Source of the DNA: Minisyncoccia bacterium
Lineage (GTDB): Bacteria; Patescibacteriota; Minisyncoccia; Phycocordibacterales; PALSA-1337
Length of the DNA: 64,000 nucleotides
Reading direction: 5' to 3'
Assembly (NCBI GenBank): GCA_049997795.1
Contig: JBEKVT010000001.1
Span: 312,241 to 376,240 of the forward strand
A program made the translations under genes and the position numbers. Shown piece after piece: positions 13,935 through 57,549 of the stretch. Numbering within the stretch: the stretch's first letter is position 1; every line of letters begins with the position of its first letter. The notes below the pieces were generated by a model, which was not told the origin of the DNA, did no database searches, and worked only from the letters and a program-made list of their open reading frames with translations.

Positions 13935-13944
13935 TCAGCGAACT

Positions 13945-18305: not shown

Positions 18306-18337
18306 AGCCCGCGCCTCACCGTGCGGGCTTTTCATTT
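18306..18337 (+). terminator. rho-independent terminator AGCCCGC-(10-nt loop)-GCGGGCT + TTTTCATTT
   Basis: 7-bp GC stem followed by a T-rich tract. The stop codon of the convergent minus-strand gene (18316-18318) lies in the loop. Confidence 0.6.
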
Positions 18338-28082: not shown

Positions 28083-28105
28083 CGGAATGTGGTAGACTCT
28101 CTTCC

Positions 28106-32561: not shown

Positions 32562-32640
32562 AGGCCAGCCGACTGGCGATCGCCGAGAATATCGTCCGCG
32601 TGCTCTCCGAGGCCTAACCTGCTACATTAATAGTGCGCTT

Positions 32641-33258: not shown

Positions 33259-34025
33259 AGCGATTCATCAAAGACGGCCTGTTCACCCTGCTCAACGCCT
33301 TTTCCGGCGGCCTGGACGGCCGGGCCAGCATCCTCATGTACCATGCCGTGGCGAAAGACGACAGATTCTTCACTGTGGAGCCGGAGGCCTTCGAGCGACA
33401 GCTCTCATATCTCAAAAAGAACGGCCTCGAGATCGTGAAGCTCTCTCGGCTCTTGGACAAGATGGCGAAAGGACAAGCTGTCTCCCGCTCCGTCGTGCTC
33501 TCGTTCGACGACGGATATCGTGACAACTATGCGACCGTCTTCCCGCTCCTCAAGAAGTACGGCTTCCAGGCCACGATCTTCGTCGTGACCGGCTCTTTGG
33601 GCAAGAAGCCCGGGATGATGTCCGAATCCCAGATCCGCGAGATGCAGACGAGCGGTCTGGTCGAATTCATGCCGCATAGCAGGAGCCATCACGATCTCGA
33701 CCGTCTGCCTTTGGCCGAAGCGGCCCGCGAGATCGAGGCGTCCAGAGACGATCTGGAGATGCTTTTGGGCGGCCCGGCCGATATCTTTGCTTATCCCCGC
33801 GGGCGCTTCACGCCGGAGCTGGAACAGTATCTCCGATCCCATTCCTTCCGCGCGGCCGTGACCGTGGAAGAAGGGCTGGTGACCCTGAAGACGGATCCTT
33901 TCCGTCTGCCGAGGAATTCTATCGACAGCACTACCACCGATATACAATTCAGAGGCAAGGTCTCCGGCGCTATCTCGCTGTATGTCCGCTTCAAGGCCTT
34001 TTTCAAACCAAAGCGCCATGTCTGA
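33255..34025 (+). CDS. polysaccharide deacetylase (NodB homology domain)
   Basis: SFDDGY catalytic motif, HSRSHHDL His motif. Confidence 0.7.
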   Translation: MKRFIKDGLFTLLNAFSGGLDGRASILMYHAVAKDDRFFTVEPEAFERQLSYLKKNGLEIVKLSRLLDKMAKGQAVSRSVVLSFDDGYRDNYATVFPLLKKYGFQATIFVVTGSLGKKPGMMSESQIREMQTSGLVEFMPHSRSHHDLDRLPLAEAAREIEASRDDLEMLLGGPADIFAYPRGRFTPELEQYLRSHSFRAAVTVEEGLVTLKTDPFRLPRNSIDSTTTDIQFRGKVSGAISLYVRFKAFFKPKRHV

Positions 34026-34656
34026 TTTCATCCGACAGGTATTCGCAGGGAAGACGATCGGGCGCATCCTCTTCAACCGGCAGGCGGCCCTCCGGTGCAA
34101 GGATTTGAAGGGCGAGGTCCTCGATGCCGCCGGAGGCGGCGGGGGAAGCTATCTCCGCTATATCCCGAATGATGCGGCCGTGACCCGCGTCGACGCCAAG
34201 GGTGGCCCGGGCGTCGACAAGGTCATAGATCTCAACAAGAAGCTGCCTTTCGTCGACCGCTCGTTCGATGCCATCCTATTTTTCAATGCCATCTATATCA
34301 TTCGCGATCGCAAACAGCTTTTTCAGGAATTCAGGCGCATCCTCAAAGATGCCGGTGCTTTGTTCCTCTCTTCGTCCTTCATATATAATGAGATGCCCGA
34401 GCCCCACGATTACTGCCGTTTGACCAAAGAAGGCCTGGAGGAAGAGCTCCACAGCGCGGGCTTCGCCGATGTAAGCGTATGGCGCTACGGCGAGCGCTTC
34501 ACCGCCGCGGCCTCTCTCTTGTCTCCGTTCTTTGTTTTCAATACTATCCGTTTGTTCGCCTATTCTTTGGCCGTCTTGGCCGACCGCTGCATACCCGGGT
34601 CTCTCAAAGAAAGGCATCCCGCTCCGCTCGGATACTTCTCGATAGCCCGCAAATGA
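34018..34656 (+). CDS. class I SAM-dependent methyltransferase
   Basis: VLDAAGGGGGSY motif I, FDAILFFNAIYII motif; start set to MSDFIRQVF (34018). Confidence 0.55.
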   Translation: MSDFIRQVFAGKTIGRILFNRQAALRCKDLKGEVLDAAGGGGGSYLRYIPNDAAVTRVDAKGGPGVDKVIDLNKKLPFVDRSFDAILFFNAIYIIRDRKQLFQEFRRILKDAGALFLSSSFIYNEMPEPHDYCRLTKEGLEEELHSAGFADVSVWRYGERFTAAASLLSPFFVFNTIRLFAYSLAVLADRCIPGSLKERHPAPLGYFSIARK

Positions 34657-34672
34657 CCAGCCATCCGATCGC

Positions 34673-35815
34673 ATGAAAATAATCTACCTAGCCAATGCCA
34701 GGATCCCGACCGAGAAAGCGCACGGCGTGCAGATCATGAAGATGTGCGAGGCCTTCGCGGCCGAGGGCCACGCGGTCGAGCTCGTCCTGCCTCGGCGGTT
34801 CAACCAGGTCGCCGACGACCCGTTCGCCTATTACGGCGTTCCGCGCTCTTTTTCCATACGCAAGATCGGCAACGTCGACCTCGTCTCTCTGGGCAAGATC
34901 GGCTTCGCCATACAGGCGGTGACCTTTTCCATCCGCGCCCTTTTCGATGTCTGTGGCAAGAAAGAAGCGATCGTCTATTCCAGGGACGCCGTGCCGCTAT
35001 TCTTCCTGAGCTTCTTCCGGATGCCGTTCTATTGGGAAGCCCATGTGAGCCACTATAACTTCATGGTCCGGCGAGTCCTCCGGAAGGCCAAGGGCGTCAT
35101 CGCCATAAGCGGCGGCCTTCGGGACCTCTTCGTGGGGAAGGGCGCCGATCTAGGCAAGTTCCTTCTCGCTCCCGACAGCATCGACGGGAATATCCTCCTG
35201 GACCCTACGGACAAGCGCGAGCTCCGCGCCAAACTAGGCCTGCCGCAAGACCGCACGATCGTCGGCTACGTGGGCAAGTACCGGACGATGGGGAAGGAAA
35301 AGGGCGTCGGGGAGCTCATCAAAGTCTTTGGCGAGATCGCTTCTCATTTCCCCAAGGCGCACCTGCTCTTGGTCGGCATCAATCCCTCCGAGATGGCCGA
35401 AGTGAAGGATGTCCTCGCGGAGAATGCCGTCGCGCCGGAACGATTCGAAATAGTCGGCCACGTCAAACAGGAGCAGGCCATGAGATACATAAAAGCTGCG
35501 GACGTCCTCGTCATGAATTATCCGGATACGCCGCATTACGCGCTCTATATGTCTCCGCTCAAGCTGTTCGAGTACATGGCCTCAGGGAATCCGATCGTCA
35601 CGACCGATCTCCCCAGCGTGCGCGAGATCCTCGATGAGAAGAGCGCCTTCTTCGCGCCGGCGGACGATCACCGCGCCTTACGCGAAGCCATCGAGAAGGC
35701 CATCCTGCATCCTGAAGAAGGCGCTATCCTGGCAAGGCGGGCTCTTGAAGAGGTCAAGAAGTACACCTGGCAGAAGCGAGCGGCCGCGATCACGAGTTTT
35801 ATTTCCGGCCGATAA
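34673..35815 (+). CDS. glycosyltransferase family 4
   Basis: GT-B fold; EYMASGNPIVTTDLPSVREI C-terminal motif. Confidence 0.7.
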   Translation: MKIIYLANARIPTEKAHGVQIMKMCEAFAAEGHAVELVLPRRFNQVADDPFAYYGVPRSFSIRKIGNVDLVSLGKIGFAIQAVTFSIRALFDVCGKKEAIVYSRDAVPLFFLSFFRMPFYWEAHVSHYNFMVRRVLRKAKGVIAISGGLRDLFVGKGADLGKFLLAPDSIDGNILLDPTDKRELRAKLGLPQDRTIVGYVGKYRTMGKEKGVGELIKVFGEIASHFPKAHLLLVGINPSEMAEVKDVLAENAVAPERFEIVGHVKQEQAMRYIKAADVLVMNYPDTPHYALYMSPLKLFEYMASGNPIVTTDLPSVREILDEKSAFFAPADDHRALREAIEKAILHPEEGAILARRALEEVKKYTWQKRAAAITSFISGR

Positions 35816-35834
35816 ACTGATAAGCTGATAGACC

Positions 35835-36548
35835 ATGGATAACGCAAGCCGCACGATGGTCGTGATACCTACCTATAACGAGGCGGCGAACGTAGGCCCG
35901 CTCATCGACAGGATATTCGAATTGGTGCCGGACGTAAGAGTCATGGTCGTCGACGACAATTCGCCCGACGGCACCGGTTCGATAGTCGCCGGCCTCTCGA
36001 AGCGGGATAAGCGAGTTAAGCTCTTTTCGAGGAAAGGCAAGGAAGGCCTCGGCAAGGCTTATATCGCGGCATTCGAGGCGATCTTGAAGGATCAGTCAGT
36101 CGGGTCGGTCTTGATGATGGACGCCGATTTCTCCCATGATCCTGAATATATTCCTCCGATGCTCGCGCGCGGCCTTGAAGCCAGCCTGGTCGTGGGGTCG
36201 CGATACGTCTCCCAAGGCCGCACGGAGGGCTGGGAGCTATGGCGCCGAGCCCTGTCCCGCTGGGGCAATCGATATGCCCGTCTGGTCACCGGCCTCCCAA
36301 TACGCGATTGCACGGGCGGTTTCAATCTCATAAGCCTGGATCTGTTGAGGAAGATAGACCTGAAGGCGATAGACATGTCCGGCTATGCTTTCATAATCGA
36401 GCTGAAATACTTGCTTTTCCGGGCCGGAGCCTCGGTCGCTGAAGTCCCCATCGTCTTCCGGAATCGCAGGGAAGGAGAGTCGAAGATATCCGGGCACATA
36501 GTGAGCGAAGGGGTGATCGCACCATGGAAAATGAGGCTAAAAAAGTGA
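35835..36548 (+). CDS. glycosyltransferase family 2, polyprenol-phosphate hexosyltransferase (Dpm1/PpgS-like)
   Basis: VVIPTYNEAANV, DDNSPDGT (DxD), MDADFSHDP motifs characteristic of Dpm1-like GT2. Confidence 0.75.
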   Translation: MDNASRTMVVIPTYNEAANVGPLIDRIFELVPDVRVMVVDDNSPDGTGSIVAGLSKRDKRVKLFSRKGKEGLGKAYIAAFEAILKDQSVGSVLMMDADFSHDPEYIPPMLARGLEASLVVGSRYVSQGRTEGWELWRRALSRWGNRYARLVTGLPIRDCTGGFNLISLDLLRKIDLKAIDMSGYAFIIELKYLLFRAGASVAEVPIVFRNRREGESKISGHIVSEGVIAPWKMRLKK

Positions 36549-37417
36549 ATCCGGGGGCGAAACCGGCCTGTCCGATCTGTTTTCTCTTGGGCGCTGATCT
36601 CTATACGGAGAAGAACGGCCGGCTCTTGTATCGTTGCCGCGGCTGCCGGCTCATCTTCATGCACCCGGTGCCCGCCGACGTCTCGGAGATATATTCCGAA
36701 GATTACTTCGGGGGCGCGCGCAAGGGCTTCGGCTATGTCGATTACGACGCGGACAAGATCCCCATGATACCGACCTTCGAGCGATATCTCGGATTGATCG
36801 AGGATAGGCGCCCAGGAAAAGGGCGGCTGCTCGATGTAGGAGCGGCGACCGGCTTCTTCATGCAGATCGCAGAGAAGCGCGGCTGGCGGACATCTGGCGT
36901 GGAGATCTCGCCGCATGCCACGGCCGTAGGCGTCCGCAAGGGCCTCCATATCGAGACGGGGACGCTTTCCGCCCTCGATCTCCCGAAGGGATCTTTCGAC
37001 GCGATCACCATGTTCGACGTCATAGAGCATTTCACTGATCCCTTGGCGGAAGTCGCTGCTGCCGCGCGCCTTCTCAAGCCGGGCGGCCTTCTGGTCGTGA
37101 ATACGCCGGATGCCGGCAGCGTCTGGGCGCGCCTTCTCGGCCGGCGCTGGCACCTTCTGGTCCCTCCGGAGCACATCCATTATTTCACGGCGGATAATCT
37201 CGGCCGCGTATTGAGAGCCAACGGCTTCTCCGTCGATCTCCGCACGAAGATCGGCAAGCGGTTCACCCTGCCGTATGTCTTCAAGATGCTTTACAGCTGG
37301 CAAGGCTGGCCCTTATGGCGCCGCATATATGAGAGCTCGAAAGGGAGCCGGATCGGCTCGTTGTCGATGCCGATCGATCTGCGCGACAATCTCTTCATGA
37401 TCGCCGTGAAAGCATGA
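36524..37417 (+). CDS. SAM-dependent methyltransferase with N-terminal Cys4 zinc ribbon
   Basis: CPIC...CRGC ribbon; LLDVGAATG motif I; FDAITMFDVIEH. Confidence 0.6.
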   Translation: MENEAKKVNPGAKPACPICFLLGADLYTEKNGRLLYRCRGCRLIFMHPVPADVSEIYSEDYFGGARKGFGYVDYDADKIPMIPTFERYLGLIEDRRPGKGRLLDVGAATGFFMQIAEKRGWRTSGVEISPHATAVGVRKGLHIETGTLSALDLPKGSFDAITMFDVIEHFTDPLAEVAAAARLLKPGGLLVVNTPDAGSVWARLLGRRWHLLVPPEHIHYFTADNLGRVLRANGFSVDLRTKIGKRFTLPYVFKMLYSWQGWPLWRRIYESSKGSRIGSLSMPIDLRDNLFMIAVKA

Positions 37418-39129
37418 AGGCGCTCGTCCTACAACTGAAGCTGCATTATCTGGCCATCGTCCTCGCGGTTTTGCTCGGTCTCGCGAGCTCTCTGCCGCAG
37501 ATCCTTTCGGCCCGGGCGGTGCCGGGCTTCCAGGGGATATACCACGGAGTCGTCGATGATCAGGTCTATTACGAGGCCCGCACCAAGGATGTCCTGGACG
37601 GCCACGCGTTCCTCTCCAACCCTTACATATACGAGTATAAAAGCGGCCCGCCGATGCAGGTCTGGCTGCCGGACTATCTTCGCGCCCTGCTCCCCCTGGC
37701 GTCGGGCCTCTCGATATGGCGGAGCACGTTCATATACGACTTCTTCTTCCCGGCTCTCTTGTTCATCCTATGTTACGGCATAGTCTTCCTGCTTACGAGC
37801 TCCAGGCTCACCGGCCTCTTGGCTGCCTCCGTCCTAAACGGGGGATTCTTCGTGGCCGAATTCATACGCTCGCCGAGCCCGCAGTTCAATTTCGTCTTCT
37901 GGCTGGCAACTCTGCTTTTCCTCCTGCTCTTCATGAAAGGTGGCAAGAAACGCTACGCGGTCCTTGCCGCGGTGTCCCTGGGTTTTTTGTTCAATCTGTA
38001 TCCTTATTACTGGACTTTTTACATTGTCGCGCTCACGGTATTCCTTTTCATAAAGTTCGTCATGCGGCAGAGGCAAGCCATTTGGACCTATGTTAGCGCC
38101 GCTGTCGGCGGGTTCATCATAGGCATCCCATATTTCATCTCCCTCATCCAATCGAGCCGATTGCCCTGGAATGCCGAATCGCTGGCCCGGCTCGGCCTCA
38201 TCCCGACCCATTTTCCGTCGGGATCATCCATCGTCGCGATCGGTCTCCTGACGCTTGTCTTCCTCACTATCCTGCACAGGAAAGGGCTGATCGGGACAGA
38301 TGATACGAGCCTCCTTCTCTTAGCCGGCGTCGCGGCGGCGATGATCGTTGTCAATCAGCATCTCGTCACCGGCAAGAACCTGGAATTTTCCAGCCACTAC
38401 TTCATGGAGAGCGTCTACTGGTGCGCTTTTGCCGTCTGCTACGGGTTAACACGTCTCCGCCATCTGACCCTTGTCTCGCGATACAAAAAAGCGATCGCTG
38501 CTGCGGCGATCATCGCAGTTGTCATTGTAGTAATCCGCGGCATGACGGGTTTCGTCAATGCGCAGGTGACTTACACTGCCGATGAGGTCTACGCCCAGAA
38601 TTATGCTCCGGTCTTCGCTTGGCTTAACGCCCACACCCAGAAAGACGACGTAGTGTTCGCCGATGAAGATATGAGCGACCTCATCCCGGTCTATACGGCC
38701 GACAACGTCTTCTACGCCCAATCCGCCGAGCTGTTCCTCATGCCGGACATGGAAGTCGAGACGCGCTTCATCATCGAGAATTTTTGGGACAAGATCGACG
38801 CTCCGTTCCTCGTCACGCACGAGCGGGCCGTCTGGGGCACCTATTACGTGAATATAGACGGCCACTATCGGAGCGAGAATGGCGTGCGCAAACTGCTAGG
38901 CCTGCCTCCGATCGCCTACCAGCGCATTCCCGCCCAAAAGATCAATGAGGCCCTGGCCCTATCGGCGGCTCTGCATCAAAAGAGCTTCGCGGACGATCTC
39001 AAGCCCTTCAGGGTCGATTATCTCGTCTGGGACCGCACAAAGGAGCCTGACTGGCCAGTCGCTCGATTTGATTTCTTGAAGCCGGTCTTCTCGGCGGGGA
39101 ATATAAGCGTATATAAGATTCTACGATAG
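37414..39129 (+). CDS. large polytopic membrane protein, possible GT-C-fold glycosyltransferase or polymerase
   Basis: 571 aa, ~11 predicted TM helices plus a C-terminal soluble domain; no specific motif recognised. Confidence 0.3.
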   Translation: MKALVLQLKLHYLAIVLAVLLGLASSLPQILSARAVPGFQGIYHGVVDDQVYYEARTKDVLDGHAFLSNPYIYEYKSGPPMQVWLPDYLRALLPLASGLSIWRSTFIYDFFFPALLFILCYGIVFLLTSSRLTGLLAASVLNGGFFVAEFIRSPSPQFNFVFWLATLLFLLLFMKGGKKRYAVLAAVSLGFLFNLYPYYWTFYIVALTVFLFIKFVMRQRQAIWTYVSAAVGGFIIGIPYFISLIQSSRLPWNAESLARLGLIPTHFPSGSSIVAIGLLTLVFLTILHRKGLIGTDDTSLLLLAGVAAAMIVVNQHLVTGKNLEFSSHYFMESVYWCAFAVCYGLTRLRHLTLVSRYKKAIAAAAIIAVVIVVIRGMTGFVNAQVTYTADEVYAQNYAPVFAWLNAHTQKDDVVFADEDMSDLIPVYTADNVFYAQSAELFLMPDMEVETRFIIENFWDKIDAPFLVTHERAVWGTYYVNIDGHYRSENGVRKLLGLPPIAYQRIPAQKINEALALSAALHQKSFADDLKPFRVDYLVWDRTKEPDWPVARFDFLKPVFSAGNISVYKILR

Positions 39130-39137
39130 CAAAAATA

Positions 39138-39854
39138 TCAGTTATCGACCTTAAGTGGCTTGATAGCATCTATAACCAGATACTCCACACTCTGGGTTCT
39201 CCTCTCGTAGGTTCTCCGGTACAGCTCAATGGAAATTTCGCTGAAACCCGCATGCCGCAAGTAATCTAAGGCGGTGTGAGGATTCAAAAAACAGGTAACT
39301 CCATTATTATTGAGCGGCATCTTCTTGTTGGATATGTTTTCTACAGTCAAGGCGTCGACCTTCTTGTCTCTTGATGTCGTATAAGAGCTGCTTTTGTCGG
39401 ACAGATGAAACTGGAATAATCGTCCGCCGCTCTTGAGACATCTATATATTTCCGCGTAGCTTTTCTTGTGCTCGCGGAGATTTACGTGTTGCATTGACAC
39501 AATATCGACGATACAGTCGAAAAAACCGTCTGGGAAATCCAACCTTCTCATATCTCCGAGAGAGATATGGGCTTTCACACCCCAGCTGTTCAAGGCCTTC
39601 TTTCCGATCTTGATGCCTGTTGGAGAGGTATCAATGCCGTAGGCCTCAAGGCCTTCTTTAGCGATCATCCACAGGTTGGCGCACGAGCCGGCGCCCAACT
39701 CTAATATCTTTGTCTTTTTCTTGAGAGAAGGAGGGATCCTGAAATAATTTCGGGCAAGGAATTGAATGAGTTGCTCGTTCGGATATCTCCTTTGAGAGTA
39801 GAGGCCGTCTTTTCGATACTTGAGTTCGAAACTATGCCCTTGTTTATTTTTCAT
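39138..39854 (-). CDS. class I SAM-dependent methyltransferase (AT-rich, compositionally atypical gene)
   Basis: ILELGAGSCANL motif I, FDCIVDIVSMQHV. Coding DNA is visibly lower in GC (roughly mid-40s %) than its neighbours. Confidence 0.6.
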   Translation of the reverse strand: MKNKQGHSFELKYRKDGLYSQRRYPNEQLIQFLARNYFRIPPSLKKKTKILELGAGSCANLWMIAKEGLEAYGIDTSPTGIKIGKKALNSWGVKAHISLGDMRRLDFPDGFFDCIVDIVSMQHVNLREHKKSYAEIYRCLKSGGRLFQFHLSDKSSSYTTSRDKKVDALTVENISNKKMPLNNNGVTCFLNPHTALDYLRHAGFSEISIELYRRTYERRTQSVEYLVIDAIKPLKVDN

Positions 39855-40581
39855 GATGAGGTTTATTTGTCTCTACCAATGAATATAAACGGTCGCTGAT
39901 TTTCTTCAGTTCGGAGAGGTCCAAGTCATTCTTCGGCCCGGCATCCTTTTTGCGCTCCGCGATTATGAAAGCTTGGCGATTGAGCGACCGTGACGACTGC
40001 GTGACGTACTCCGTTCTGCTCAAGAGCCAGGCCAAGAGACGGAAGGGCCGCGAACCGGCCACCGGATGCGAGCCGAGATAGCCGCGCTCGTCCATGAAGA
40101 TATTCTCGTAAAATCGGCTCACCGGATTGCGGTAATAGACGACCTTGACGGAGCTGAAATGCACCCGAGCCGCGGAAAGACAGCCGGAAAGCCCGTCGTC
40201 GATCGGGACTTCGAACAATAGCCGGCCCTTGGGCGCGGTGATGCGGCAGAGCTTGTCCACCGTCCTCACCCTGGCCGCGACGGGCAGGCAATAGAGCGTA
40301 TTGGTAGAGGCGATGACGTCTATCGAATCCGATGGCAGACCGTAGAGATTGTTGAGATCGGCGACAAGTCCCAAGGTCCGCTCGTCAGGATATCTTTTAA
40401 GGCCGGTCTCTACCCTCTGTTTGTCTATATCCAAGCCGATGTACGTCCCGGTCTTGAACATGGGGCGGTTCTTGAAGGTGGCCGAACCGGCGTCGAGCCC
40501 GACGCCCGTCTTTGTCTTCCCGAGCTCTTTCTCGAGCCTGTCGAACAGGAATGATTTCGACGGCCTGACCATGAAGTTCAT
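39844..40581 (-). CDS. class I SAM-dependent methyltransferase
   Basis: GLDAGSATF motif I, IDVIASTNTLYCL. The 3' ~100 nt of the gene lie in the AT-rich patch. Confidence 0.5.
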   Translation of the reverse strand: MNFMVRPSKSFLFDRLEKELGKTKTGVGLDAGSATFKNRPMFKTGTYIGLDIDKQRVETGLKRYPDERTLGLVADLNNLYGLPSDSIDVIASTNTLYCLPVAARVRTVDKLCRITAPKGRLLFEVPIDDGLSGCLSAARVHFSSVKVVYYRNPVSRFYENIFMDERGYLGSHPVAGSRPFRLLAWLLSRTEYVTQSSRSLNRQAFIIAERKKDAGPKNDLDLSELKKISDRLYSLVETNKPHHEK

Positions 40582-41714
40582 AGCGGTTGTGTCGGTTTAC
40601 TCGCCTTGTAAGCTTCGAGCAGGATCCGGACGATCCTTTCTGCCGCGTGCCCGTCGCCGTACGGCTCGCCGGAAGGAAGCGGCTTTGCCAGGATCGACTT
40701 CACGCCGGCGAGCACGCTCTCCGGCTCGAGCCCGGCTAGGATATTCGTCCCGAGCTCGACCGTCTCCGGCCGCTCGGTATTCTCGCGCATGGTCACGCAA
40801 GGCACTCCGAGGATGCAGGCCTCTTCCTGGATGCCGCCGGAATCCGTCAAGATAAGGGCCGCCTGGGACTCGAGCTGCAAGAAGTCGAAATACCCGAGCG
40901 GGGCGACCAGCTTTATCTCCTTGGGGATGGTATGCACCCAATTCTCGATGTGCTTCCAGGTTCGGGGATGGACAGGGTATACGACCGGCATCTTCATATA
41001 GTGCGAAGCCAGGATGAGGCTCTTGAATATCTTCTTGCGGGTCTCCTTGGTGTCGACTTTCTCAGCGCGATGCGCCGTGGCTAGGATGTACTTATTCTTT
41101 TCCACACCCATCCTAGTGAAGATGTCCGAAGCCGTCCTGCCCGAGAGCGGAAGGCTGTGGTTCACGGCGTCGACCACGGTATTGCCGGTCAGATGGATCT
41201 TCCCGGCCGGGATATTCTCCGCCAAGAGATTGGCGCGGGCATGTTCCGACGGCACGAATAGATAATCGGATATGGAATCGGCGATGATGCGATTCACTTC
41301 CTCGGGCATGGAAAGGTCATTGCTGCGCAGCCCCGCTTCGATGTGGCCGATCGGGATGCCGAGCTTAGCGGCCGACAAGACGCCGGCCAGGACCGTGTAG
41401 GTGTCGCCCTGCACCAGGACCGCGTCGGGCTTTTCTTTCTTCAGGATCTCTTGGATGCCGAAAACCATCGCGCTCATCTGCTTCCGGAATTCCTGCCCGC
41501 CGCTATGCAGGTTGTACTGCGGATAGGGGATGCCGAGATCCCCGAATATCTTCTTGTCCATTTCGGGGCTGTAATGCTGGCCGGAATGCAGGATGAAATA
41601 GTCGCAGCCCTCCTTGTCGCAGGCGCGGATCAAGGGCGACATCTTGATGATCTCGGGGCGAGTGCCCAGGATGATGGCGATCTTCGGCCCTTTCTTTTTC
41701 TCTGCAGGTTTCAT
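40578..41714 (-). CDS. wecB: UDP-N-acetylglucosamine 2-epimerase
   Basis: 378 aa; IILGTRPEIIKMSPL, HIEAGLRS, GNTVVDA family segments. Hydrolysing versus non-hydrolysing cannot be told from sequence by eye. Confidence 0.8.
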   Translation of the reverse strand: MKPAEKKKGPKIAIILGTRPEIIKMSPLIRACDKEGCDYFILHSGQHYSPEMDKKIFGDLGIPYPQYNLHSGGQEFRKQMSAMVFGIQEILKKEKPDAVLVQGDTYTVLAGVLSAAKLGIPIGHIEAGLRSNDLSMPEEVNRIIADSISDYLFVPSEHARANLLAENIPAGKIHLTGNTVVDAVNHSLPLSGRTASDIFTRMGVEKNKYILATAHRAEKVDTKETRKKIFKSLILASHYMKMPVVYPVHPRTWKHIENWVHTIPKEIKLVAPLGYFDFLQLESQAALILTDSGGIQEEACILGVPCVTMRENTERPETVELGTNILAGLEPESVLAGVKSILAKPLPSGEPYGDGHAAERIVRILLEAYKASKPTQPL

Positions 41715-41717
41715 GGT

Positions 41718-42908
41718 CTATAGTTCTTTGAATATGCCCAAAAGCTTGGCTGTCGTATTTCTGACGTGGAACTGCTCCAGGAATGCTGTATCGATCTTTC
41801 GGGATGTCTTGCCATTAATCAAATCCTTCAAATATGCGGCAGCTTCGGCGACCTCGTCATAACCGAAAGATCTTTCGCCTAGCCGGTCCAGGAATCCCGA
41901 GACTGTGCTGCCATGCGGAGTGATGCCGACCACGGGCTTGCCGCTTCCAGCGTAGTCTATCACCTTCGAAGGCAGGAACGGGCTTGTGCCGAAATTCGCA
42001 TCGATCGTCACCAGACAGTCGGAGCTTTTCATGAGGCGCAGGCTCTCCCGGAAGGGAACAGTCGAGATCATCTCCGTTCGGTCTTTGAGGCCATACTGTT
42101 CGAGCAGCGACTCGATCTTCTCTTGGGTATAGCCGGCATAAGGATTGGCGCCGCCGACCAAGCGGATCTTCAGCTTCGAAGCGAGAGCGGCATCGTCCGA
42201 GATCGCTTTCTTCAGGATCTTGAAAAGGATCTCCGGATTGCGTTCCTTATAGAAGACGCCGATGTAGCTTATGATGAAATCGCTATCAGTTCTCCTCGCG
42301 TCGGCCGGATAATCCTTCGGGTCGTAGCAATGGGGGATGACCCGGCATTTTTCCTTATAAGCGGCCGGGTATTTCTTCATGACCATGTCCCGGAGCTGCT
42401 CGCTCACGAACACGATGCGGTCGGCCGCCTCGACGACGCCCGTTTCCTGACGCAAAACGTCGTCCGCGGCTCTCTTCGAGAACGGCTTATATCCGCTGTC
42501 GTACCAGGGATCGCTGAAATTCGCTACGAATCTGACGCCGAAGCGCTTCTTCACCCCGGCGCCTATCACGTTGCTGAATTGGGGATTTGCGAAGGAGAAG
42601 ACTAGCCCGATCTGGTGTTCCTTGATGATCGGTCCGAAAAAATCCATAAGTCGGTCGAGATATTTGCGGTCGCGCGAGCGCCGGAGTGCCGGCACCCTGT
42701 CGAAGACCCGGTTATGTTTCCTTTGGGGTATGCGGTAGCGTGGCAGATCGATGTCCCAATCCTCGCCGCCGTAGCTCACTATGACGGGCTTCACGCCCTG
42801 TCGCACCCATTCCGGGACCATCTTACCGATCAGGATGGCCTGCGGCCTGATCTCCGGCGGAGTGCGGAGGCTCAAACAAAGCACGTTAATATCTTTATTT
42901 GGCATCAA
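41718..42908 (-). CDS. glycosyltransferase family 4
   Basis: GT-B; VIDYAGSGKPVVGITPHGSTVSGF motif. Confidence 0.6.
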   Translation of the reverse strand: MMPNKDINVLCLSLRTPPEIRPQAILIGKMVPEWVRQGVKPVIVSYGGEDWDIDLPRYRIPQRKHNRVFDRVPALRRSRDRKYLDRLMDFFGPIIKEHQIGLVFSFANPQFSNVIGAGVKKRFGVRFVANFSDPWYDSGYKPFSKRAADDVLRQETGVVEAADRIVFVSEQLRDMVMKKYPAAYKEKCRVIPHCYDPKDYPADARRTDSDFIISYIGVFYKERNPEILFKILKKAISDDAALASKLKIRLVGGANPYAGYTQEKIESLLEQYGLKDRTEMISTVPFRESLRLMKSSDCLVTIDANFGTSPFLPSKVIDYAGSGKPVVGITPHGSTVSGFLDRLGERSFGYDEVAEAAAYLKDLINGKTSRKIDTAFLEQFHVRNTTAKLLGIFKEL

Positions 42909-42914
42909 ATGTTC

Positions 42915-43463
42915 CTAGCGTTTCGGTCTGTGTGCCCTCGGAGAGAAGACGACCCCTTGCAATTCCAAGGCGCCGACGCCAAGCCGCGTGCACTTCGCGC
43001 GTACCGACTCGACCAGGCGTTCGAACTCTCTCGAATCCTTCTTGACGTCGAGGTACAAATCTTCCTTATCGAGCATGATATATCGCGCTCCGATCTTCTT
43101 GATGATGGCCTCGAGCTCTTGTACGCCTTTCCGCGTCTCGATCTTCGGGACCAGGCCTATGCGATCAGGGAGCTGGATGCGGATGGCGTGGATCGCAGCG
43201 GGATCCTCGACGTTCGAGACGGCGAAATGCTTCACATTCTTGAACTTGCGGGCGGTCTTGATGGCGTCCGAGAGCTTGGTGACCGGCCTGGGAGGCTTGG
43301 TCCGGCCTTGGGGGTAATCGAGATAGACGTCATGGGTAAGGCTTCCAAGCAGATTCAAGAGGTCTTTTTTGCTGTCGAGCCAGGCGATATTGACGCGCAC
43401 GACCACGTCCTTGGGGATCTTGATGTGGGTCGTGACGAGCAGATGATTAGAGGCGATGATCAT
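42915..43463 (-). CDS. HpcH/HpaI-aldolase or pyruvate-kinase-barrel-like protein
   Basis: LVPKIETRKGVQELEAII...YIMLDKEDLYLDV resembles the KIE..G..N..EI...DGIM.ARGDLG PEP/pyruvate-binding barrel motif. Start set to MIIASNHLL. Confidence 0.3.
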   Translation of the reverse strand: MIIASNHLLVTTHIKIPKDVVVRVNIAWLDSKKDLLNLLGSLTHDVYLDYPQGRTKPPRPVTKLSDAIKTARKFKNVKHFAVSNVEDPAAIHAIRIQLPDRIGLVPKIETRKGVQELEAIIKKIGARYIMLDKEDLYLDVKKDSREFERLVESVRAKCTRLGVGALELQGVVFSPRAHRPKR

Positions 43464-43476
43464 GTTTTGGTTTGCG

Positions 43477-43929
43477 TCACTCGCCCTTGATCTTCTTGAT
43501 GATGCCGCTCGTCGATATGCCGTCATGATAGCCCAAGACCACGATCTTGCAGTCGATCTCTTTCGCGGTCTTTGCGCCGGGGATGTTCCCGCTCTCGTTC
43601 CAGCCGGCCCCAGGGCCTTTGGCCAGGATATGGGGCTTCAGCCTGATGAGGTTCTCGTCCGGCGCCAGGTCATGTTGCGGCACGACCTCGTCGACCGACC
43701 TGCAGTGCTCGAGGACCAGTTTCCGGTGCTCAAAAGGGATGACCGGCTCGCGCTTGTAGGCAGATACCACGTCGTCAGTGAAAAGGCCGACCACCAATCT
43801 GTCTCCTAGCGCCCGGGCCTCGTTCAGGAGCTCGACGTGGCCGCTATGGAAAAGGTCGAAGGCGCCGTATGTGTAGACGATCGTTTGCCGAGCCTTCTTT
43901 TTCGCCTTTCTTGCCTTTGTTTTTTTCAT
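43477..43929 (-). CDS. cytidylyltransferase, glycerol-3-phosphate cytidylyltransferase (TagD)-like
   Basis: YGAFDLFHSGHVELL HxGH nucleotidyltransferase motif; 150 aa, the size of TagD. Confidence 0.65.
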   Translation of the reverse strand: MKKTKARKAKKKARQTIVYTYGAFDLFHSGHVELLNEARALGDRLVVGLFTDDVVSAYKREPVIPFEHRKLVLEHCRSVDEVVPQHDLAPDENLIRLKPHILAKGPGAGWNESGNIPGAKTAKEIDCKIVVLGYHDGISTSGIIKKIKGE

Positions 43930-43943
43930 GATGGATATTCAGA

Positions 43944-45191
43944 TTAGCTTTTTTCGCACCCTCTGGCAATCTGTCCGCGCATCTCATGCAATTTCGCCAC
44001 GGCGGCCGCAGTCGCCTTGCCCCGGTTATACAGCAATCTGTCGTCGATCGACGGCGCATTATCCGGCCGCGCCTCGCGAGGTACGGTCAAACTGCGGGCG
44101 ATGGCCGCGTAGAACTCTTTTGGCGTCTTCACCAGAGAGCCGTAGATCGGCCGGAAATCTCCCAGCGAGTTCATCTCATGATCCTCGAAGAACCTCGGTA
44201 TATCCAGGAAGATCATCGGCTTGCGCAGGAAATAGAACTCGATCCATATGGTGCTGATATCGGTCACGGCAAGGTCGCTTCCCATGATGAATTCCGGCGA
44301 GTCGACCTCGTAGGCGTTGTATATCCTGTGGCCAGCGATGTCGCTATTGTCGAAGAAGGATCTCCAATCGACCCCGCCGCTGCCTTTCTTGCTGGTCGGA
44401 TCTATATATGATCCGGGATGGATCTTCACGATCAAATTGGCCTTGAAGCGCTCGGGGATCTCAAGGATCCGGTCGAGCCAAGTGAAGACGCTGGTGTTCT
44501 GGTTCCAGGTGGCTGCGTAGAAGACCGTAGGCAGGGAAGGATCGAGCCCGAGCCCTTTTATGAAGGCCTTGCGATCGATGCCCCTGTCGCGCAGCTCGAA
44601 AAGAATGTCATATTTCGGACAGCCGATCTCGTGGAGCTTCGGGATCTTGGCGATGCGGTGGTCGGCGCAGAACGTCAGCATGTCTTTTTTGAACGCTTCG
44701 CCAGTGAGGAAGACGTCGGTCATCTTGTCGATCGCCGGCGAGAAGACGTCATATTTCGTTTTGGAAGTCACCGTGTGGGGGAAGTGGATCTTATAATGAG
44801 CCCGCTTCGGCACTTTGATGTCGTATGACAGCGTGGCGTTCAGATAAAAATCTACCCAAGGGAAATGATCGAAGAATCGGGAATCGACCAGATCCGGCCG
44901 GCCTTCCTTCCAGGATGATCCGATGAGTTTCCTGAGGTTTCCCATGAGCTTGTCGTGAGTGATGACTACGACGCAAGCCCCGTCTCCGATGAGCTCGGCC
45001 AGCACCGACTGCAGATAGAAGAATTCGTTCGTCGTGGTTATCTCCGCGATGACGGTCATAAAGCCGCGCCGCTTCGCCCGGACGATATCCACGCGCGCCC
45101 GGCACAGCCAGAAGATCCCCACCAGGGCGCTTCCCAGCCGGACAAGCTTGTTCTTCAGTTTATGCAGCACGGCTTTCATGTCCTTCCTCAT
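43944..45191 (-). CDS. CDP-glycerol glycerophosphotransferase family protein (TagB/TagF-like)
   Basis: 415 aa; Glyphos_transf-type C-terminal region (YNAYEVDSPEFIMGSDLAVTDISTIWIEFYFLRKPMIF). Confidence 0.6.
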   Translation of the reverse strand: MRKDMKAVLHKLKNKLVRLGSALVGIFWLCRARVDIVRAKRRGFMTVIAEITTTNEFFYLQSVLAELIGDGACVVVITHDKLMGNLRKLIGSSWKEGRPDLVDSRFFDHFPWVDFYLNATLSYDIKVPKRAHYKIHFPHTVTSKTKYDVFSPAIDKMTDVFLTGEAFKKDMLTFCADHRIAKIPKLHEIGCPKYDILFELRDRGIDRKAFIKGLGLDPSLPTVFYAATWNQNTSVFTWLDRILEIPERFKANLIVKIHPGSYIDPTSKKGSGGVDWRSFFDNSDIAGHRIYNAYEVDSPEFIMGSDLAVTDISTIWIEFYFLRKPMIFLDIPRFFEDHEMNSLGDFRPIYGSLVKTPKEFYAAIARSLTVPREARPDNAPSIDDRLLYNRGKATAAAVAKLHEMRGQIARGCEKS

Positions 45192-45877
45192 GGGATCAGC
45201 CTGAAAAGGGCCCGCTTCTTATCCTTCTTGTATGAATCGACTTCGGCGATCTTCTCGACCACGGAAAATCCGCATGACTTAAGGAAGCTCTCTATCCATT
45301 CATGGGGCCGATCTCCCATATCCGGCAGACGCTTCGCCCACGAAAGCTCGCTTTCATCCGACTGGCCCATCTCGAAGATCATCTCCTTCTTAGTCCTCTT
45401 TCGCAGCAGGCTCATGAATCCTCGCGCATATTCCTCCCCGCGGGCGGACATGATGTGGTGCAAGACCGACATGCAGATGACGAGGTCTGAAGCGGGCAGG
45501 CGCGGGATCATCTCCGTATCGGCAGCGCCGAAGATGAATCTGGCATTCCGTATCTTTTCTTTTATGATCTGATCTTCCGCCACAGCAAACCTGCGCGCGT
45601 CCATCTCGACGCCTATCGCGGTGCATGAGCATTCCCGAGCGGCTTGGATCACATAAAAGCCCTCCGCGGAGCCGATATCGAGAACGGACGAGCCGCCGCT
45701 CGTTTCGATCTCCTTGCGGATCACTTCCCAACGGTCAAAGCAGTTGCGCTCGTTGCCGCCGACGAATCTGCCTCGGATCAAGACTGGCTGGTAGCGCGGA
45801 TATGAATAGAGCGCAGACCTGAGGCATATCTTCTGCCTGATCGTCTGGAACAATGTTCTTTTCTCCTCCTGCTGCAT
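45188..45877 (-). CDS. class I SAM-dependent methyltransferase
   Basis: VLDIGSAEGFYV motif I, LVICMSVLHHI; start set to MQQEEK (45877), 2 nt from the upstream stop. Confidence 0.55.
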   Translation of the reverse strand: MQQEEKRTLFQTIRQKICLRSALYSYPRYQPVLIRGRFVGGNERNCFDRWEVIRKEIETSGGSSVLDIGSAEGFYVIQAARECSCTAIGVEMDARRFAVAEDQIIKEKIRNARFIFGAADTEMIPRLPASDLVICMSVLHHIMSARGEEYARGFMSLLRKRTKKEMIFEMGQSDESELSWAKRLPDMGDRPHEWIESFLKSCGFSVVEKIAEVDSYKKDKKRALFRLIP

Positions 45878-45878
45878 G

Positions 45879-48086
45879 TTATTTTTCTTTATGCGGGATC
45901 GAGCTCGACTCGATGAGCACGTCGGCAAAATATTTCACCGCCCAATTCAAGGCTTGGTATTGACCATACTCGCCGGATATCGGGGAGCTTCCCCAGACGG
46001 CGCCGCTTAAAACCGGATCAGAGCCATTGTATTGGCATGATTTCAAGAAGTCCTTGAGCTTCCTCGCGGCTTCCATGTATGCGCTATCGTGCGTGCCGAC
46101 GTACGCCTTCATGCATGTCACTGCGATCTGCGCGATGCCCGTCAAGCACGCCCAATCGACGGTGCCGTCCCATTTCTCGTCGAATCTTCCCGGTATCTTG
46201 CCGGTCGCGCCCATCCGATCGATGATCTGATCGAGCGCCTTCCGCGCGGCGTCCGTGAACCTCCGTTCCTTGAGATGGATGCCGATATCCCACAGGCCGT
46301 CGATCGTATAAGCGATCGTATGAAGGAGCGCGTCGGGCCGTTGTTCGAAGTCTGCGTCGCGGAACCAGCCGTTCGGGTCTTGCATCGACAGGGTGTGTTC
46401 CGCCGATCTCCGCGCCGCCTCGGTCAAGTCCTTATCTTTCGCCAGCGCGCCCAATTCGGCGAGAGGCGCCAGGGCATACACGTTATATGTAGTGACCCTC
46501 TGATCGACTGACGAGGCATTATCAGAATTCCACCAGCCTTGTTTGCCAAGATCATCGGCGTATTCATGCTCCAATATCCAGGCAGCCGATCTTTTCGCCG
46601 CCTTCAAGTACTTCTCCTTTTTGGTCAGCTGCCACATAGCGATCATGCCCCGGATGACCTGGCCGGTATCGAAGACGGCCGGAGCCGGCGGAACGGAGAT
46701 GTTCCCTCCCTGTACGGCCCCGCCTGGCAGCATGACGTTGATCTCCCACTCTGCCATGAGCCGCGCCCGCCGGATGAGGTCCGCGTCGCCCAAGAGCCGT
46801 CCGGCCTTGATCATGGTCGGGATGATGTAGCCGGTCGTCTCAGGGTAAGACGGCTGCCAGCCGAAGCGATTAGACTTGCTTCCCGGAATGAGATCGAAGC
46901 CTCGGCTCACTCCTCCGTCCGGCGTGGCATCCTGCGCCCGTTTGAGCCAATCGAGACATCTCATCAGATGGTCGCGGTCGCTCCCGACCAAGGCGTGATC
47001 GTATCGGGCGAGTTCCTTCTCGAACCGCGCCAGAGTTCTTTTATTCGCTTGCCATTTTAATATCTTGCCGGCCCTTTTAAAAACTGATTTAAGAGCGGAG
47101 TCCTTTTTCGTCGGCCCCTGTATGCTGCCGATCCAGGAGATCTTTTCCATGGTCTTCGAGAATACCGGCCACTCTGATACCGCCGATTCGACGGCCAGGG
47201 CCAGATCATAGATCTTAGTCGCCAGCCAGTCTGGGGCCCAGCCGCGGAACTTCATCGGCTCGAAGAGGTAGAAGAAGAATCCCCAACCTGCCCCCGCGTA
47301 TGATATCGGTTTGACGAAACAGTCCGCCGCCCATTTATTTATCTCTCGATATGAATAGTAACGATCGTATGTGAGGCCCCAGGGCTTCAGGCGGTCGATC
47401 GCTGGCAGCATCCTGAATCGTTTGTATAGCTCCTTCGGGTTCAGCTTATTATAAAGTTCTAATGCGACGAAGCCGCTCGGTTTGGTGATGCGGACCATCT
47501 CGGCGAAGGCCGCTTCCGGCCGTCTGATGTGCTGGAAGACCCTGATGCTCACGGAGAGATCGGCCACCGCGCCTTTGATGGGCATATCCTCGAGCTGGCA
47601 ACAGACGAGCCATGCTTCCGGCATCCTTTCCTTGGCCGCCTTGAGGAGATGCAGGGAAGAGTCGGTACCTATCTTTCTTCCGATCTTCGGATAATATGAC
47701 AGAAGCCTGCCGTTGCCGCAGCCGCAGTCGATGACGGTCCGGCCGCTCAAGCCGGCATTCGCCGACGCGAGCAGCCGGTCTATCGCCCTCATCTCGGAGA
47801 CGTGCGTATATAACCCCCATGTTGAGCCCTGTTTCTTCAGGTAGCTGTCGTATTTCTTGGCGTAATTCTTCGCCTGCTCTTCCTGATCCCAATGCCTTTT
47901 GTGCATGTCCGGAGAATGGGCCGCGTCCGGGAAGATGATAGGGATCCCATGGTCGACAGGGTAGACGTCGCCGCATTCGGCGCACACGAGAGAATCCGCC
48001 GAGTCCTGCCTCAAATCGCCGCGGCAATGCCGTTTCGGACAGCAAAGGATATCCATGAACTCCTGGGGAAGCTTGTCGGCGGTCAT
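45879..48086 (-). CDS. three-domain fusion: Trm112-like zinc ribbon + class I SAM methyltransferase + ~450-aa C-terminal alpha-helical domain, possibly (alpha/alpha)6-toroid-like
   Basis: CCPKRHC...CAECG ribbon; VIDCGCGNGRLL motif I and FVALELYN; long Trp/Ala-rich helical C-terminal region with no motif I can name. Confidence 0.5.
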   Translation of the reverse strand: MTADKLPQEFMDILCCPKRHCRGDLRQDSADSLVCAECGDVYPVDHGIPIIFPDAAHSPDMHKRHWDQEEQAKNYAKKYDSYLKKQGSTWGLYTHVSEMRAIDRLLASANAGLSGRTVIDCGCGNGRLLSYYPKIGRKIGTDSSLHLLKAAKERMPEAWLVCCQLEDMPIKGAVADLSVSIRVFQHIRRPEAAFAEMVRITKPSGFVALELYNKLNPKELYKRFRMLPAIDRLKPWGLTYDRYYSYREINKWAADCFVKPISYAGAGWGFFFYLFEPMKFRGWAPDWLATKIYDLALAVESAVSEWPVFSKTMEKISWIGSIQGPTKKDSALKSVFKRAGKILKWQANKRTLARFEKELARYDHALVGSDRDHLMRCLDWLKRAQDATPDGGVSRGFDLIPGSKSNRFGWQPSYPETTGYIIPTMIKAGRLLGDADLIRRARLMAEWEINVMLPGGAVQGGNISVPPAPAVFDTGQVIRGMIAMWQLTKKEKYLKAAKRSAAWILEHEYADDLGKQGWWNSDNASSVDQRVTTYNVYALAPLAELGALAKDKDLTEAARRSAEHTLSMQDPNGWFRDADFEQRPDALLHTIAYTIDGLWDIGIHLKERRFTDAARKALDQIIDRMGATGKIPGRFDEKWDGTVDWACLTGIAQIAVTCMKAYVGTHDSAYMEAARKLKDFLKSCQYNGSDPVLSGAVWGSSPISGEYGQYQALNWAVKYFADVLIESSSIPHKEK

Positions 48087-57515: not shown

Positions 57516-57549
57516 CGGATGTGATATTTTAATGTTAATTTATTAAACT

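Follow-up and report, generated by a model that had tools for sequence, protein, structure and literature searches.

Gene content of the locus and extent of the AT-rich tract

The window, a 64 kb stretch of DNA analysed at its full length, has an overall GC content of 0.576 and contains two conserved glycan modules that converge on a single intervening gene. The module on the reverse strand comprises genes for a GT4 glycosyltransferase (41718-42908), placed there by synteny, for the UDP-GlcNAc 2-epimerase WecB (40578-41714; TIGR00236, E 6e-116) and for a native methyltransferase-like protein, MT245 (39844..40581; Pfam Methyltransf_11), which is the last gene of the module. The module on the forward strand comprises genes for a GT2 glycosyltransferase (35835-36548) and the methyltransferase MT297 (36524-37417), both assigned by Pfam, and ends with MEM571 (37414..39129), a native gene encoding a presumed membrane protein of 571 residues without Pfam match. 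The intervening gene, MT238 (39138..39854, reverse strand), encodes an intact class I SAM-dependent methyltransferase of 238 residues. MEM571 is convergent on MT238, the two stop codons being separated by a spacer of 8 nt (39130..39137) in which a terminator scan detected no terminator-like hairpin. The promoter and terminator scan returned no excess over shuffled sequences, and nothing at the tract junctions.

Conservation of the two modules was assessed by synteny. The order GT4-WecB-MT245 was found in 6 loci (it is conserved in L013 and L020-L023), and the GT2-MT297-MEM571 module is conserved in L115; the order of GT2 and MT297 is kept in L115 and L116, with identities of 53% and 48%. An MT238 homolog followed the MT245 homolog in none of 15 genome loci, although these comparators are distant (37-54% identity). 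The slot after the MT245 homolog was variable among the same 15 loci, and GT2-MT297-MEM571 was conserved separately. Thus, MT238 lies exactly at the module boundary. Scanning of the genome collection revealed neither the host species nor a close relative, a relative with an empty site was not found in the collections searched, and clusters built at 90% identity contained neither an empty site nor alternative C-termini.

The GC content of positions 39130-39960 is 0.454. The lowest value for any 831-bp segment was 0.440, for the segment starting at 39101, about 5 standard deviations under the mean of all such segments (mean 0.5755, sd 0.0255), and this was the sole locus in the window with an 831-bp GC content below 0.50. 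The top AT-rich maximal-scoring segment spanned positions 39100 to 39911 or 39933 (score 29-32, GC about 0.45), as compared to a score of 15.5 for the runner-up and a maximum of 11.7 in 100 shuffles. In composition, no other part of the window is as anomalous as the tract, and the GC-poor patch of about 800 bp reported in the first-pass annotation is borne out by sliding 831-bp GC, by the segment scan and by the shuffles. The core of the anomaly (39100..39891) is delimited by the maximal-scoring segment and by change points in GC content at third codon positions (GC3) at about 39099 and 39891. By raw composition, the segment reaches about 39933, owing to the K, N and D richness of the conserved peptide next to it. 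The tract also covers the final 9 codons of MEM571, its convergent neighbour, a feature absent from the first-pass annotation.

The JGI, ENA and Logan assemblies together contain at least 24 contigs with the tract, at 99.98-100% identity. Both tract junctions are crossed by contigs 14-657 kb in length that come from many samples and three assembly sources, and in each neighbour the reading frame passes cleanly through the junction. The sampled population is clonal. Chimerism, for which inspection of read mapping had been advised, is ruled out by these concordant, independently assembled contigs. One short contig (L005) stops at position 39101, which is the left edge of the tract, as might be expected if low-GC reads had been joined into a high-GC contig during assembly or binning. 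Against the long contigs spanning both junctions and the clean frames of the neighbours, the probability of such an artefact is negligible.

Edges of the tract in the flanking genes

MT245 has a composition matching that of the host (|z| < 2), and its homologs were found in Patescibacteria MAGs, with no relative between 54% and 100% identity. Within the gene, GC3 falls from 0.77 to 0.13 at about 39891, the position of the maximum-likelihood change point for synonymous sites, located after codon 230 (support 39870-39894). The last 15 codons (39847..39891, reverse strand; L-Y-S-L-V-E-T-N-K-P-H-H-E-K region), which coincide with the 5' leader and start region of MT238, have a GC3 of 2/15. Only two of 17,280 windows of 14 codons in 52 genes had a GC3 of 2/14 or less, and both were in the MT245 tail. 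No other coding stretch of the window is as AT-biased at third positions as these last 15 codons. The null distribution for log-likelihood ratios (LLR) of GC3 change points was limited to 3' ends since unrestricted LLRs were inflated by open reading frames called too long at the 5' end; the 3'-terminal LLR of MT245 (11.4) was the highest of the 52 genes, the next one being 7.1. AT enrichment is observed genome-wide in the 45 nt preceding start codons and in the last 10 codons of genes (mean GC about 0.50 versus 0.576), and the tails of coupled genes have a mean GC3 of 0.66 (sd 0.13). The third-position tests rule out AT-richness of gene ends and initiation regions as the full cause of the MT245 tail.

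The upstream junction thus lies about 15 codons inside MT245. A composition switch within the 3' end of this gene had been proposed in the first-pass annotation, correctly as to its existence, but its extent is 15 rather than about 35 codons. Residues 205 to 238, approximately, align with all 20 homologs, K211 is invariant, and the motifs D-L-S and R-[IL]-Y-x-L are present. The AT-richness of codons 210 to 230, approximately, comes from conserved residues rich in K, N, D, E and I, and codons 217 to 230, approximately, have native-like third positions (GC3 10/14). Conservation in 20 of 20 homologs argues against a C-terminus that is foreign over about 35 residues. What stands of the proposed mosaic is the last 7 residues (at most about 15), which are lineage-specific or atypically encoded. 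The final 7 residues form an extension into the start of MT238 that is lacking in all 20 homologs and, as judged from this alignment, is lineage-specific. The extension ends in an 11-nt overlap, ATGAAAAATAA (39844..39854, reverse strand), containing the start codon of MT238 and the stop codon of MT245. The Leu residue following R-L-Y-S in the AT-rich tail still fits the family consensus, a match that is equally expected if the donor also had an MT245-like gene.

At the opposite edge, the C-terminus of MEM571, a family with 1,336 cluster representatives, is family-typical to the last residue: the alignment continues to the end of the protein, and Y567 is invariant in it; no relative of MEM571 was found between 44% and 100% identity. 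The tail of MEM571 has a GC3 of 2/9 and an LLR of 5.0, which ranks fourth among 52 genes, and is indistinguishable from an ordinary gene-end effect.

Both tract edges carry a copy of an 11-nt direct repeat (repeat family D13, forward strand): GAATATAAGCG at 39099..39109 on the left and GAATATAAACG at 39881..39891 on the right, identical at 10 of 11 positions. The repeat has a chance probability of about 0.006-0.012 and was noticed post hoc. Its presence at both edges resembles homology-facilitated or microhomology-mediated illegitimate recombination, but repeat-to-repeat deletion would break the ends of MEM571 and MT245: it would remove the motif containing the invariant Tyr567 of MEM571, and MT245 would meet no stop codon for 37 codons. 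Since excision would destroy the conserved C-termini of the flanking genes, the repeat was rejected as a target-site duplication, and simple insertion with target duplication is excluded. The tract contains neither a transposase or integrase gene nor convincing terminal inverted repeats, and neither mobility genes nor repeats of the insertion-sequence kind were detected beside MT238. With no clean excision, recombinase or terminal inverted repeats, a mobile cassette of the transposon or insertion type was likewise rejected. Searches of plasmid, phage and viral contigs yielded no close relative and hence no candidate vector.

The MT238 methyltransferase and its relatives

MT238 has a GC content of 0.455, with 0.438-0.44 at first (GC1), 0.36-0.371 at second (GC2) and 0.56-0.576 at third codon positions, as compared to a GC3 of about 0.70-0.83 for native genes. 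Its codon choice deviates from the host usage expected given its own amino acids (z -6.6 to -7.1). The encoded protein scored above the curated Pfam cut-offs for Methyltransf_25 (63.7 bits, cut-off 27), Methyltransf_11 (61.4, cut-off 21.2) and Methyltransf_23 (38.7, cut-off 27), with E values of 1e-17 to 1e-9; matches to NCBIfam were all sub-threshold. The AlphaFold2 model (pLDDT 94.4, pTM 0.91) has a Rossmann-like alpha/beta fold, and the top Foldseek matches were all class I methyltransferases (E to 3e-15). All 22 family-invariant residues are retained, and departure from the consensus at 5 of 65 highly conserved columns is inside the family range. Motif I reads L-E-L-G54-A-G56-S-C58. The family-invariant G54 and G56 are present, but the third glycine of the class I motif E/D-x-G-x-G-x-G, conserved in at least 90% of the family, is replaced by Cys58. 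D75 (in G-I-D), invariant in the 34-sequence alignment, is also present; we take it to be the acidic residue at the end of strand beta-2 that contacts the SAM ribose.

Sequence and fold searches against solved structures returned generic methyltransferases only. The nearest ones, the uncharacterised proteins 2P8J, 3SM3 and 1VE3 and METTL6, were recovered by both Foldseek and profile search. They share the Rossmann-type fold of MT238 (TM 0.70-0.77 query-normalised, up to 0.84 target-normalised; E 1e-13 to 1e-15), but sequence identity is 16-22%, and the top matches include no characterised sugar methyltransferase. The gene neighbourhood suggests that the substrate of MT238 is a sugar.

The closest homologs of MT238, 52-58% identical, are metagenomic proteins encoded on contigs with a GC content of 0.31-0.54. 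No donor was found, and none can be named because the nearest relatives are so distant. In the locus of one of these closest homologs (L032), the gene is located near a GT4-WecB pair, so a donor inside the same radiation is as plausible as one outside it, such as the different phylum expected in the first-pass annotation. Members of the family occur in aminosugar and nonulosonic-acid clusters beside DegT, NeuB and CMP-sugar synthetase genes, and some are composition outliers in their own contigs (gene minus flank -0.13 in L053 and L074, and -0.09 in L050). In another locus (L034, GC 0.54), an MT245 homolog is directly followed by an MT238 homolog, both somewhat below the GC content of the neighbouring gene, and the convergent gene encodes a GT1 rather than MEM571. 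This adjacency indicates that the MT245-MT238 pairing could predate a single insertion, or may recur.

Origin of the tract

The composition of MT238 was evaluated by a regression of codon-position GC on host GC specific to the family (57 homolog loci). For a host of 0.576 GC, GC1 of MT238 had a z score of -3.7 and GC2 of -2.2, corresponding to apparent host GC contents of 0.37 and 0.42, respectively. For GC3, the z score was -0.8 and the apparent host GC 0.54. Native genes of the window exceed the GC3 given by the family regression (about 0.75 versus 0.62), which makes the degree of amelioration uncertain. In the family, GC1 and GC2 follow host GC tightly (r 0.87 and 0.82), and the combined GC1 and GC2 of MT238 is 3.6 standard deviations too low. 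These values point to a gene that was horizontally acquired, although not recently. According to the model of Lawrence and Ochman, third positions reportedly equilibrate faster than first and second positions following transfer. MT238 follows this pattern, with GC3 near that of the host and GC1 and GC2 like those of hosts of about 37-42% GC. The regression used here is specific to one gene family and based on 57 loci, in contrast to the general bacterial regressions of the model, and the age of the transfer is not derivable without rate calibration for this lineage. The foreign composition attributed to the gene in the first-pass annotation is upheld by its codon usage and by the regression. 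Its recent arrival is not, given the largely ameliorated GC3, the low-GC-like GC1 and GC2, and the distance of the closest homologs.

We consider it probable that MT238 came by horizontal transfer from a lineage of lower GC content and was inserted at the glycan-module junction in the 57.6%-GC genome of this small, uncultivated member of the Minisyncoccia. According to this scheme, the accessory gene would have arrived alone between GT4-WecB-MT245 and GT2-MT297-MEM571. The incoming DNA would have brought about 37 nt of the MT238 5' leader, replacing the last few codons and the stop codon of MT245. Reading through the AT-rich leader, MT245 would have gained its 7-residue extension and a stop codon 11 nt inside MT238, an overlap compatible with translational coupling. 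The transfer would be old, as synonymous sites have come most of the distance to host composition and amino-acid-determining positions have not. MT238 may methylate a sugar or nucleotide-sugar intermediate of the surface polymer specified by the cluster, which would contain ManNAc and glycerol-phosphate, and thereby decorate it.

A recombination event involving both neighbours is a possible but unlikely alternative. About 0.8 kb (39099-39891) would have been swapped with a lower-GC locus of the same three-gene arrangement (MT245-like, MT238, convergent MEM571-like), with crossovers where the 3' ends of the two flanking genes are conserved, perhaps at the 11-nt repeat GAATATAA(G/A)CG, so that both genes would be true mosaics with family-typical C-termini. 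The change points coincide with the outer edges of the repeat (chance P about 0.01), and when 53 genes are ranked by the GC3 of their last 9 codons, the two lowest tails are those abutting MT238. The AT-rich part includes the conserved residues V-Y567-K-I-L (MEM571) and Leu (MT245), which is expected only with homologous donor genes, and the MT245-MT238 adjacency recurs in L034. However, the MEM571 tail is ordinary by its LLR, several native genes having AT3-rich tails of 5-11 codons, and the repeat was a post hoc observation. The full three-gene order was absent from 15 genome loci, 80 metagenome loci and the look-up loci, L034 having GT1 in place of MEM571, and homologs of 57% and about 40% GC would be too dissimilar in nucleotides for RecA-type recombination. 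We give little credence to another scheme, in which the tract is a recombinase-less decoration cassette. Methyltransferase genes of the family would be exchanged among the surface-glycan clusters of various bacteria, CPR members included, through recombination at short homologies located where module-terminal genes have conserved 3' ends (the 11-nt repeat in the present case); these ends would be recoded and the protein sequence kept. If true, it would explain the family's composition outliers in several unrelated contigs.

Vertical inheritance of MT238, with AT-richness resulting from amino-acid composition, low expression or relaxed codon selection, and with neighbour tails shaped by initiation and gene-end constraints, is unlikely. 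It would accord with the genome-wide AT enrichment before starts and in last codons, with GC3 of MT238 (0.576) inside the family regression, and with the pair in L034, where both genes are again somewhat GC-poor. A compositional relic is also conceivable since most recovered Patescibacteria loci are low-GC. In contrast, GC1 and GC2 track the host across the family and in the controls, MT245 and WecB, but not in MT238, and the codon choice of MT238 (z about -7) departs from host usage given its own amino acids. Initiation constraints lack the power to bring GC3 from the 0.66 typical of coupled-gene tails to 0.13, and none of the 15 genome loci has an MT238 homolog behind that of MT245. The account in the first-pass annotation, a recent insertion or replacement giving MT245 about 35 foreign residues at its C-terminus, is very improbable. 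Raw GC does fall over the last 35 codons or so, but the corresponding residues are conserved in 20 of 20 homologs, third positions remain native-like up to the change point after codon 230, comparison of the three codon positions indicates that much amelioration has occurred, and the best homolog is 58% identical.

Accessory genes of atypical GC content acquired by horizontal transfer are common in the O-antigen, capsule and teichoic-acid clusters of bacteria. The locus resembles these surface-polysaccharide clusters in having one low-GC glycan-modifying gene among glycosyltransferase and nucleotide-sugar genes, at a boundary between conserved modules; it differs in its host, which belongs to the Candidate Phyla Radiation and has a high GC content, and in that the deviation is confined to a single gene and does not extend to the entire locus. 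No relevant literature was found. The acquisition of MT238, as we read it, is genuine but unremarkable for genes of surface polysaccharides: an accessory gene of atypical GC content at such a place is a textbook pattern, MT238 is a generic class I methyltransferase, and the case opens no new question. It offers a clean example of amelioration, synonymous sites having shifted and amino-acid-determining sites not, and marks the junction after GT4-WecB-MT245 as a variable slot. It would also indicate that even a reduced CPR genome, such as that of a member of the Minisyncoccia, edits its surface-glycan cluster through the uptake of single modifying genes.

An AT-rich tract in a surface-glycan cluster

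MT238 (39138-39854, minus strand) encodes a class I SAM-dependent methyltransferase of 238 residues (Pfam Methyltransf_25/11/23, E values of 3e-17 to 1e-9; NCBIfam models gave sub-threshold matches only). The gene belongs to a surface-glycan, teichoic-acid-like cluster, whose proteins NCBI assigns to a Minisyncoccia MAG. Upstream, and overlapping it by 11 nt, is a second methyltransferase gene, MT245 (39844-40581, minus strand), which has a weaker Methyltransf_11 match and is preceded by genes for WecB (40578-41714, minus strand; TIGR00236, E value of 6e-116) and a GT4 glycosyltransferase (41718-42908, minus strand). MEM571 (37414-39129, plus strand), encoding 571 residues with no Pfam match, is convergent on MT238 across an 8-nt spacer; on this converging side it follows genes for a GT2 glycosyltransferase and the methyltransferase MT297 (36524-37417, plus strand). 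Other genes of the cluster encode a cytidylyltransferase, a CDP-glycerol glycerophosphotransferase-like protein, a polysaccharide deacetylase, GtrA, and a UDP-glucose dehydrogenase. SAM-methyltransferase genes are unusually numerous in the region 32600-48100 (approximate limits), where the gene calls include at least seven (205, 212, 297, 238, 245, 229, and 735 residues). A gene for an 83-residue HTH_17 protein (excisionase/MerR-type; about 49749-50000, or 582-833 of comparison locus L009) lies at the edge of the cluster and adjoins an ABC transporter gene. The sole tRNA gene in the window, specifying tRNA-Ile (GAT; 10221-10295), is about 29 kb from the AT-rich patch and is thus not its integration site.

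The GC content of the interval 39130-39960 is 0.454 versus 0.576 for the window. Over the full set of 831-bp windows (mean 0.5755, sd 0.0255), GC content reached its lowest value, 0.440, at start position 39101, and values below 0.50 were found at no other place; a 200-bp profile was also computed. A maximal-scoring-segment scan ranked 39100-39911/39933 first, with a score of 29-32, the second-best score being 15.5 and the highest of 100 shuffles 11.7. The GC minimum and the segment score therefore indicate that the anomaly is real and is the strongest compositional one in the 64 kb. This confirms the AT-rich patch described in the first-pass annotation, with limits corrected to about 39100-39891. 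The next AT-rich segments were short (scores of 10-15): by ORF coordinates only, 18034-18180 reaches from the final codons of ORF 16653-18062 into the spacer that precedes 18316-18984, 57500-57589 begins at the end of ORF 56592-57515, and 12489-12607 lies within ORF 12269-13072. GC content at the third codon position (GC3) was also reduced in 51802-52884 (0.65) and 53678-54688 (0.63), with codon-choice z values of -3.7 and -4.5 versus the window; both genes could be acquisitions that are older or have partly ameliorated.

Boundaries of the tract

In MT245, GC3 is 0.77 up to codon 230 versus 0.13 in the last 15 codons, with a change point at about 39891 (support 39870-39894; log-likelihood ratio [LLR] of 12.9). 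A GC3 of 2/14 or less was found in just two of 17,280 14-codon windows from 52 genes, both of them in this tail, and none of the windows of MT238 itself fell below 4/14. The tails of translationally coupled genes had a mean GC3 of 0.66 (sd 0.13), and MT245 came first of the 52 genes when change points were tested on 3' ends alone (LLR 11.4; next 7.1). Regions upstream from starts and gene ends are generally AT-enriched (mean GC of about 0.50); this enrichment is mostly a matter of amino-acid composition and cannot account for the tail. We therefore place the junction of the acquired DNA in the final 15 or so codons of MT245. A foreign leader would encode the extreme C-terminus of MT245 and supply its stop codon.

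When MT245 was aligned with 20 homologs (44-54% identity), conservation extended to about residue 238, with an invariant K211 and the motifs F/L-D-L-S and R-[IL]-Y-x-L. The part of MT245 that extends past every homolog is confined to the final 7 residues (T-N-K-P-H-H-E-K region), which run into the start codon of MT238. The proposal of a boundary inside the neighboring gene stands, but the mosaic C-terminus of about 35 residues proposed with it is refuted by this conservation. GC3 was 0.43 over the last 14 codons of the GT4 gene. Longest-ORF calls at 27914-29149, 13631-15379, and 42915-43526 probably have 5' ends that are too long and gave spurious internal GC3 change points (JGI products of 347 and 182 residues for the first and last).

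For the left boundary, the best position is the stop codon of MEM571 or its immediate vicinity. GC3 was 2/9 over the last 9 codons of this gene; its terminal change-point score was ordinary (LLR 5.0, rank 4/52), and AT3-rich tails of 5 to 11 codons also occur in several native genes. The C-terminus of MEM571, with the invariant Y567, could be aligned to the last residue across 1,336 cluster representatives, a large family without a Pfam model.

A direct repeat, GAATATAAGCG (39099-39109) and GAATATAAACG (39881-39891), coincides with both change points, a match with a chance of about 0.006-0.012 for two 41-nt windows of this composition. Excision of the tract with one repeat copy would cost MEM571 its V-Y567-K-I-L motif and leave MT245 open for 37 more codons; because both genes would be damaged, a simple insertion with the repeat as its target-site duplication is rejected. 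The repeat is either a coincidence or microhomology used in a replacement event. A rival model, in which the AT-rich tract was swapped in by such a replacement, thus keeps a low probability. Assembly chimerism, raised in the first-pass annotation, does not account for the arrangement. The exact MT238 and MT245 proteins co-occur, in unchanged arrangement, on at least 24 contigs from different samples (JGI, ENA, and Logan; the largest of 657 kb), and no alternative C-termini were found in 90%-identity clusters. Twelve fetched loci were 99.98-100% identical to the window over 30-50 kb; since the population is clonal, they carry no presence/absence information. One independent assembly (L005, JGI 3300038415) has a contig end at 39101, exactly the left edge of the tract. 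Many other contig ends also fall within the cluster, at 35947, 37323, 38215, 38413, 38790, and 43463-43947. Heterogeneity among strains or low coverage may be the cause.

Composition and probable origin of MT238

GC contents at the three codon positions of MT238 are 0.44, 0.36, and 0.56, the GC3 of native genes being about 0.70-0.83, and its overall GC content is 7 sd below that expected for its amino-acid sequence under host codon usage. For MT238-family genes from 80 metagenome loci and several look-up loci, each codon position was regressed on flank GC (57 distinct loci; r of 0.87, 0.82, and 0.93). First and second positions of MT238 fit hosts of about 0.37 and 0.42 GC (z of -3.7 and -2.2 versus expectation at 0.576, combined -3.6), and the third position matches a host of 0.54 GC (z of -0.8). 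The control genes MT245 and WecB fitted the host at all positions. The GT4 gene fell 3-4 sd under its family regression at all three positions, an uncertain value extrapolated from six points. The combination found in MT238, low-GC first and second positions with a near-host third position, is a classical amelioration signature. It points to a gain from a lower-GC lineage, early enough that synonymous sites have since shifted substantially. The nearest homologs are only 52-58% identical (contigs of 0.31-0.54 GC), so that no donor can be named; this distance and the ameliorated GC3 contradict the earlier description of the event as recent.

Among the fetched loci, family members differ from their flanks by a mean of -0.017 GC (sd 0.041), and the difference of -0.12 for MT238 is close to the family extreme. 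Strong low-GC outliers in unrelated metagenome contigs (L053, -0.13; L074, -0.13; L050, -0.09; L048, -0.075) suggest that the family is frequently transferred. Searches of plasmid, phage, and viral sequences found no close relative.

Genomic position and predicted role

Among 15 genome loci with MT245 homologs, mostly from Patescibacteria, the GT4-WecB-MT245 block recurs (L013, L020-L023). None of the 15 has an MT238 homolog after MT245; the slot is occupied by a protein of about 435 residues without a Pfam match, a convergent GT1 or GT2 gene, or others. The top MEM571 homolog, at 44% identity, is part of a GT2-MT297-MEM571 block of unchanged order (L115). As both blocks are conserved separately, MT238 sits exactly at their tail-to-tail meeting point. 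Both three-gene modules occur in distant Patescibacteria-type contigs, and the tail-to-tail arrangement was seen in the window. One exception to the lack of MT238 homologs behind MT245 is a 2.3-kb contig (L034, 0.54 GC). Here an MT238 homolog begins 22 nt after an MT245 homolog that ends in EDRLYDLMA, and a convergent GT1 gene comes next; the MT245-MT238 pairing therefore recurs at least once. Two loci (L019 and L024) bear record titles of 'uncultured Gammaproteobacteria' MAGs. In L019, WecB-MT245 is followed by ORFs of 969 and 710 residues (both minus strand), resembling the Patescibacteria locus L020 in length and orientation, and its label may be a binning error.

MT238 is intact. Its AlphaFold2 model (pLDDT of 94.4) matched class I methyltransferases in Foldseek (E values down to 3e-15), and the protein retains 22 of 22 family-invariant residues and departs from consensus at 5 of 65 highly conserved columns (family range 0-12). 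One departure, G58C (codon at 39681-39683), replaces the third glycine of motif I, now G-A-G-S-C, at a column that is at least 90% Gly in the family. MT238 and MT245 may be translationally coupled, as their 11-nt overlap would allow. Neighbors of family members include DegT aminotransferases, NAD-dependent sugar epimerases/dehydratases, NeuB, and CMP-sugar synthetases, and a GT4-WecB pair lies nearby in L032. We infer that the predicted activity of MT238 is most likely methylation of a sugar or nucleotide sugar of the surface polymer. The first-pass interpretation is partly supported: horizontal acquisition of MT238 and a junction within its neighbor MT245 are upheld, but a recent date and a mosaic of 35 residues are not. 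Such an acquisition is a well-known kind of event, of low general interest.
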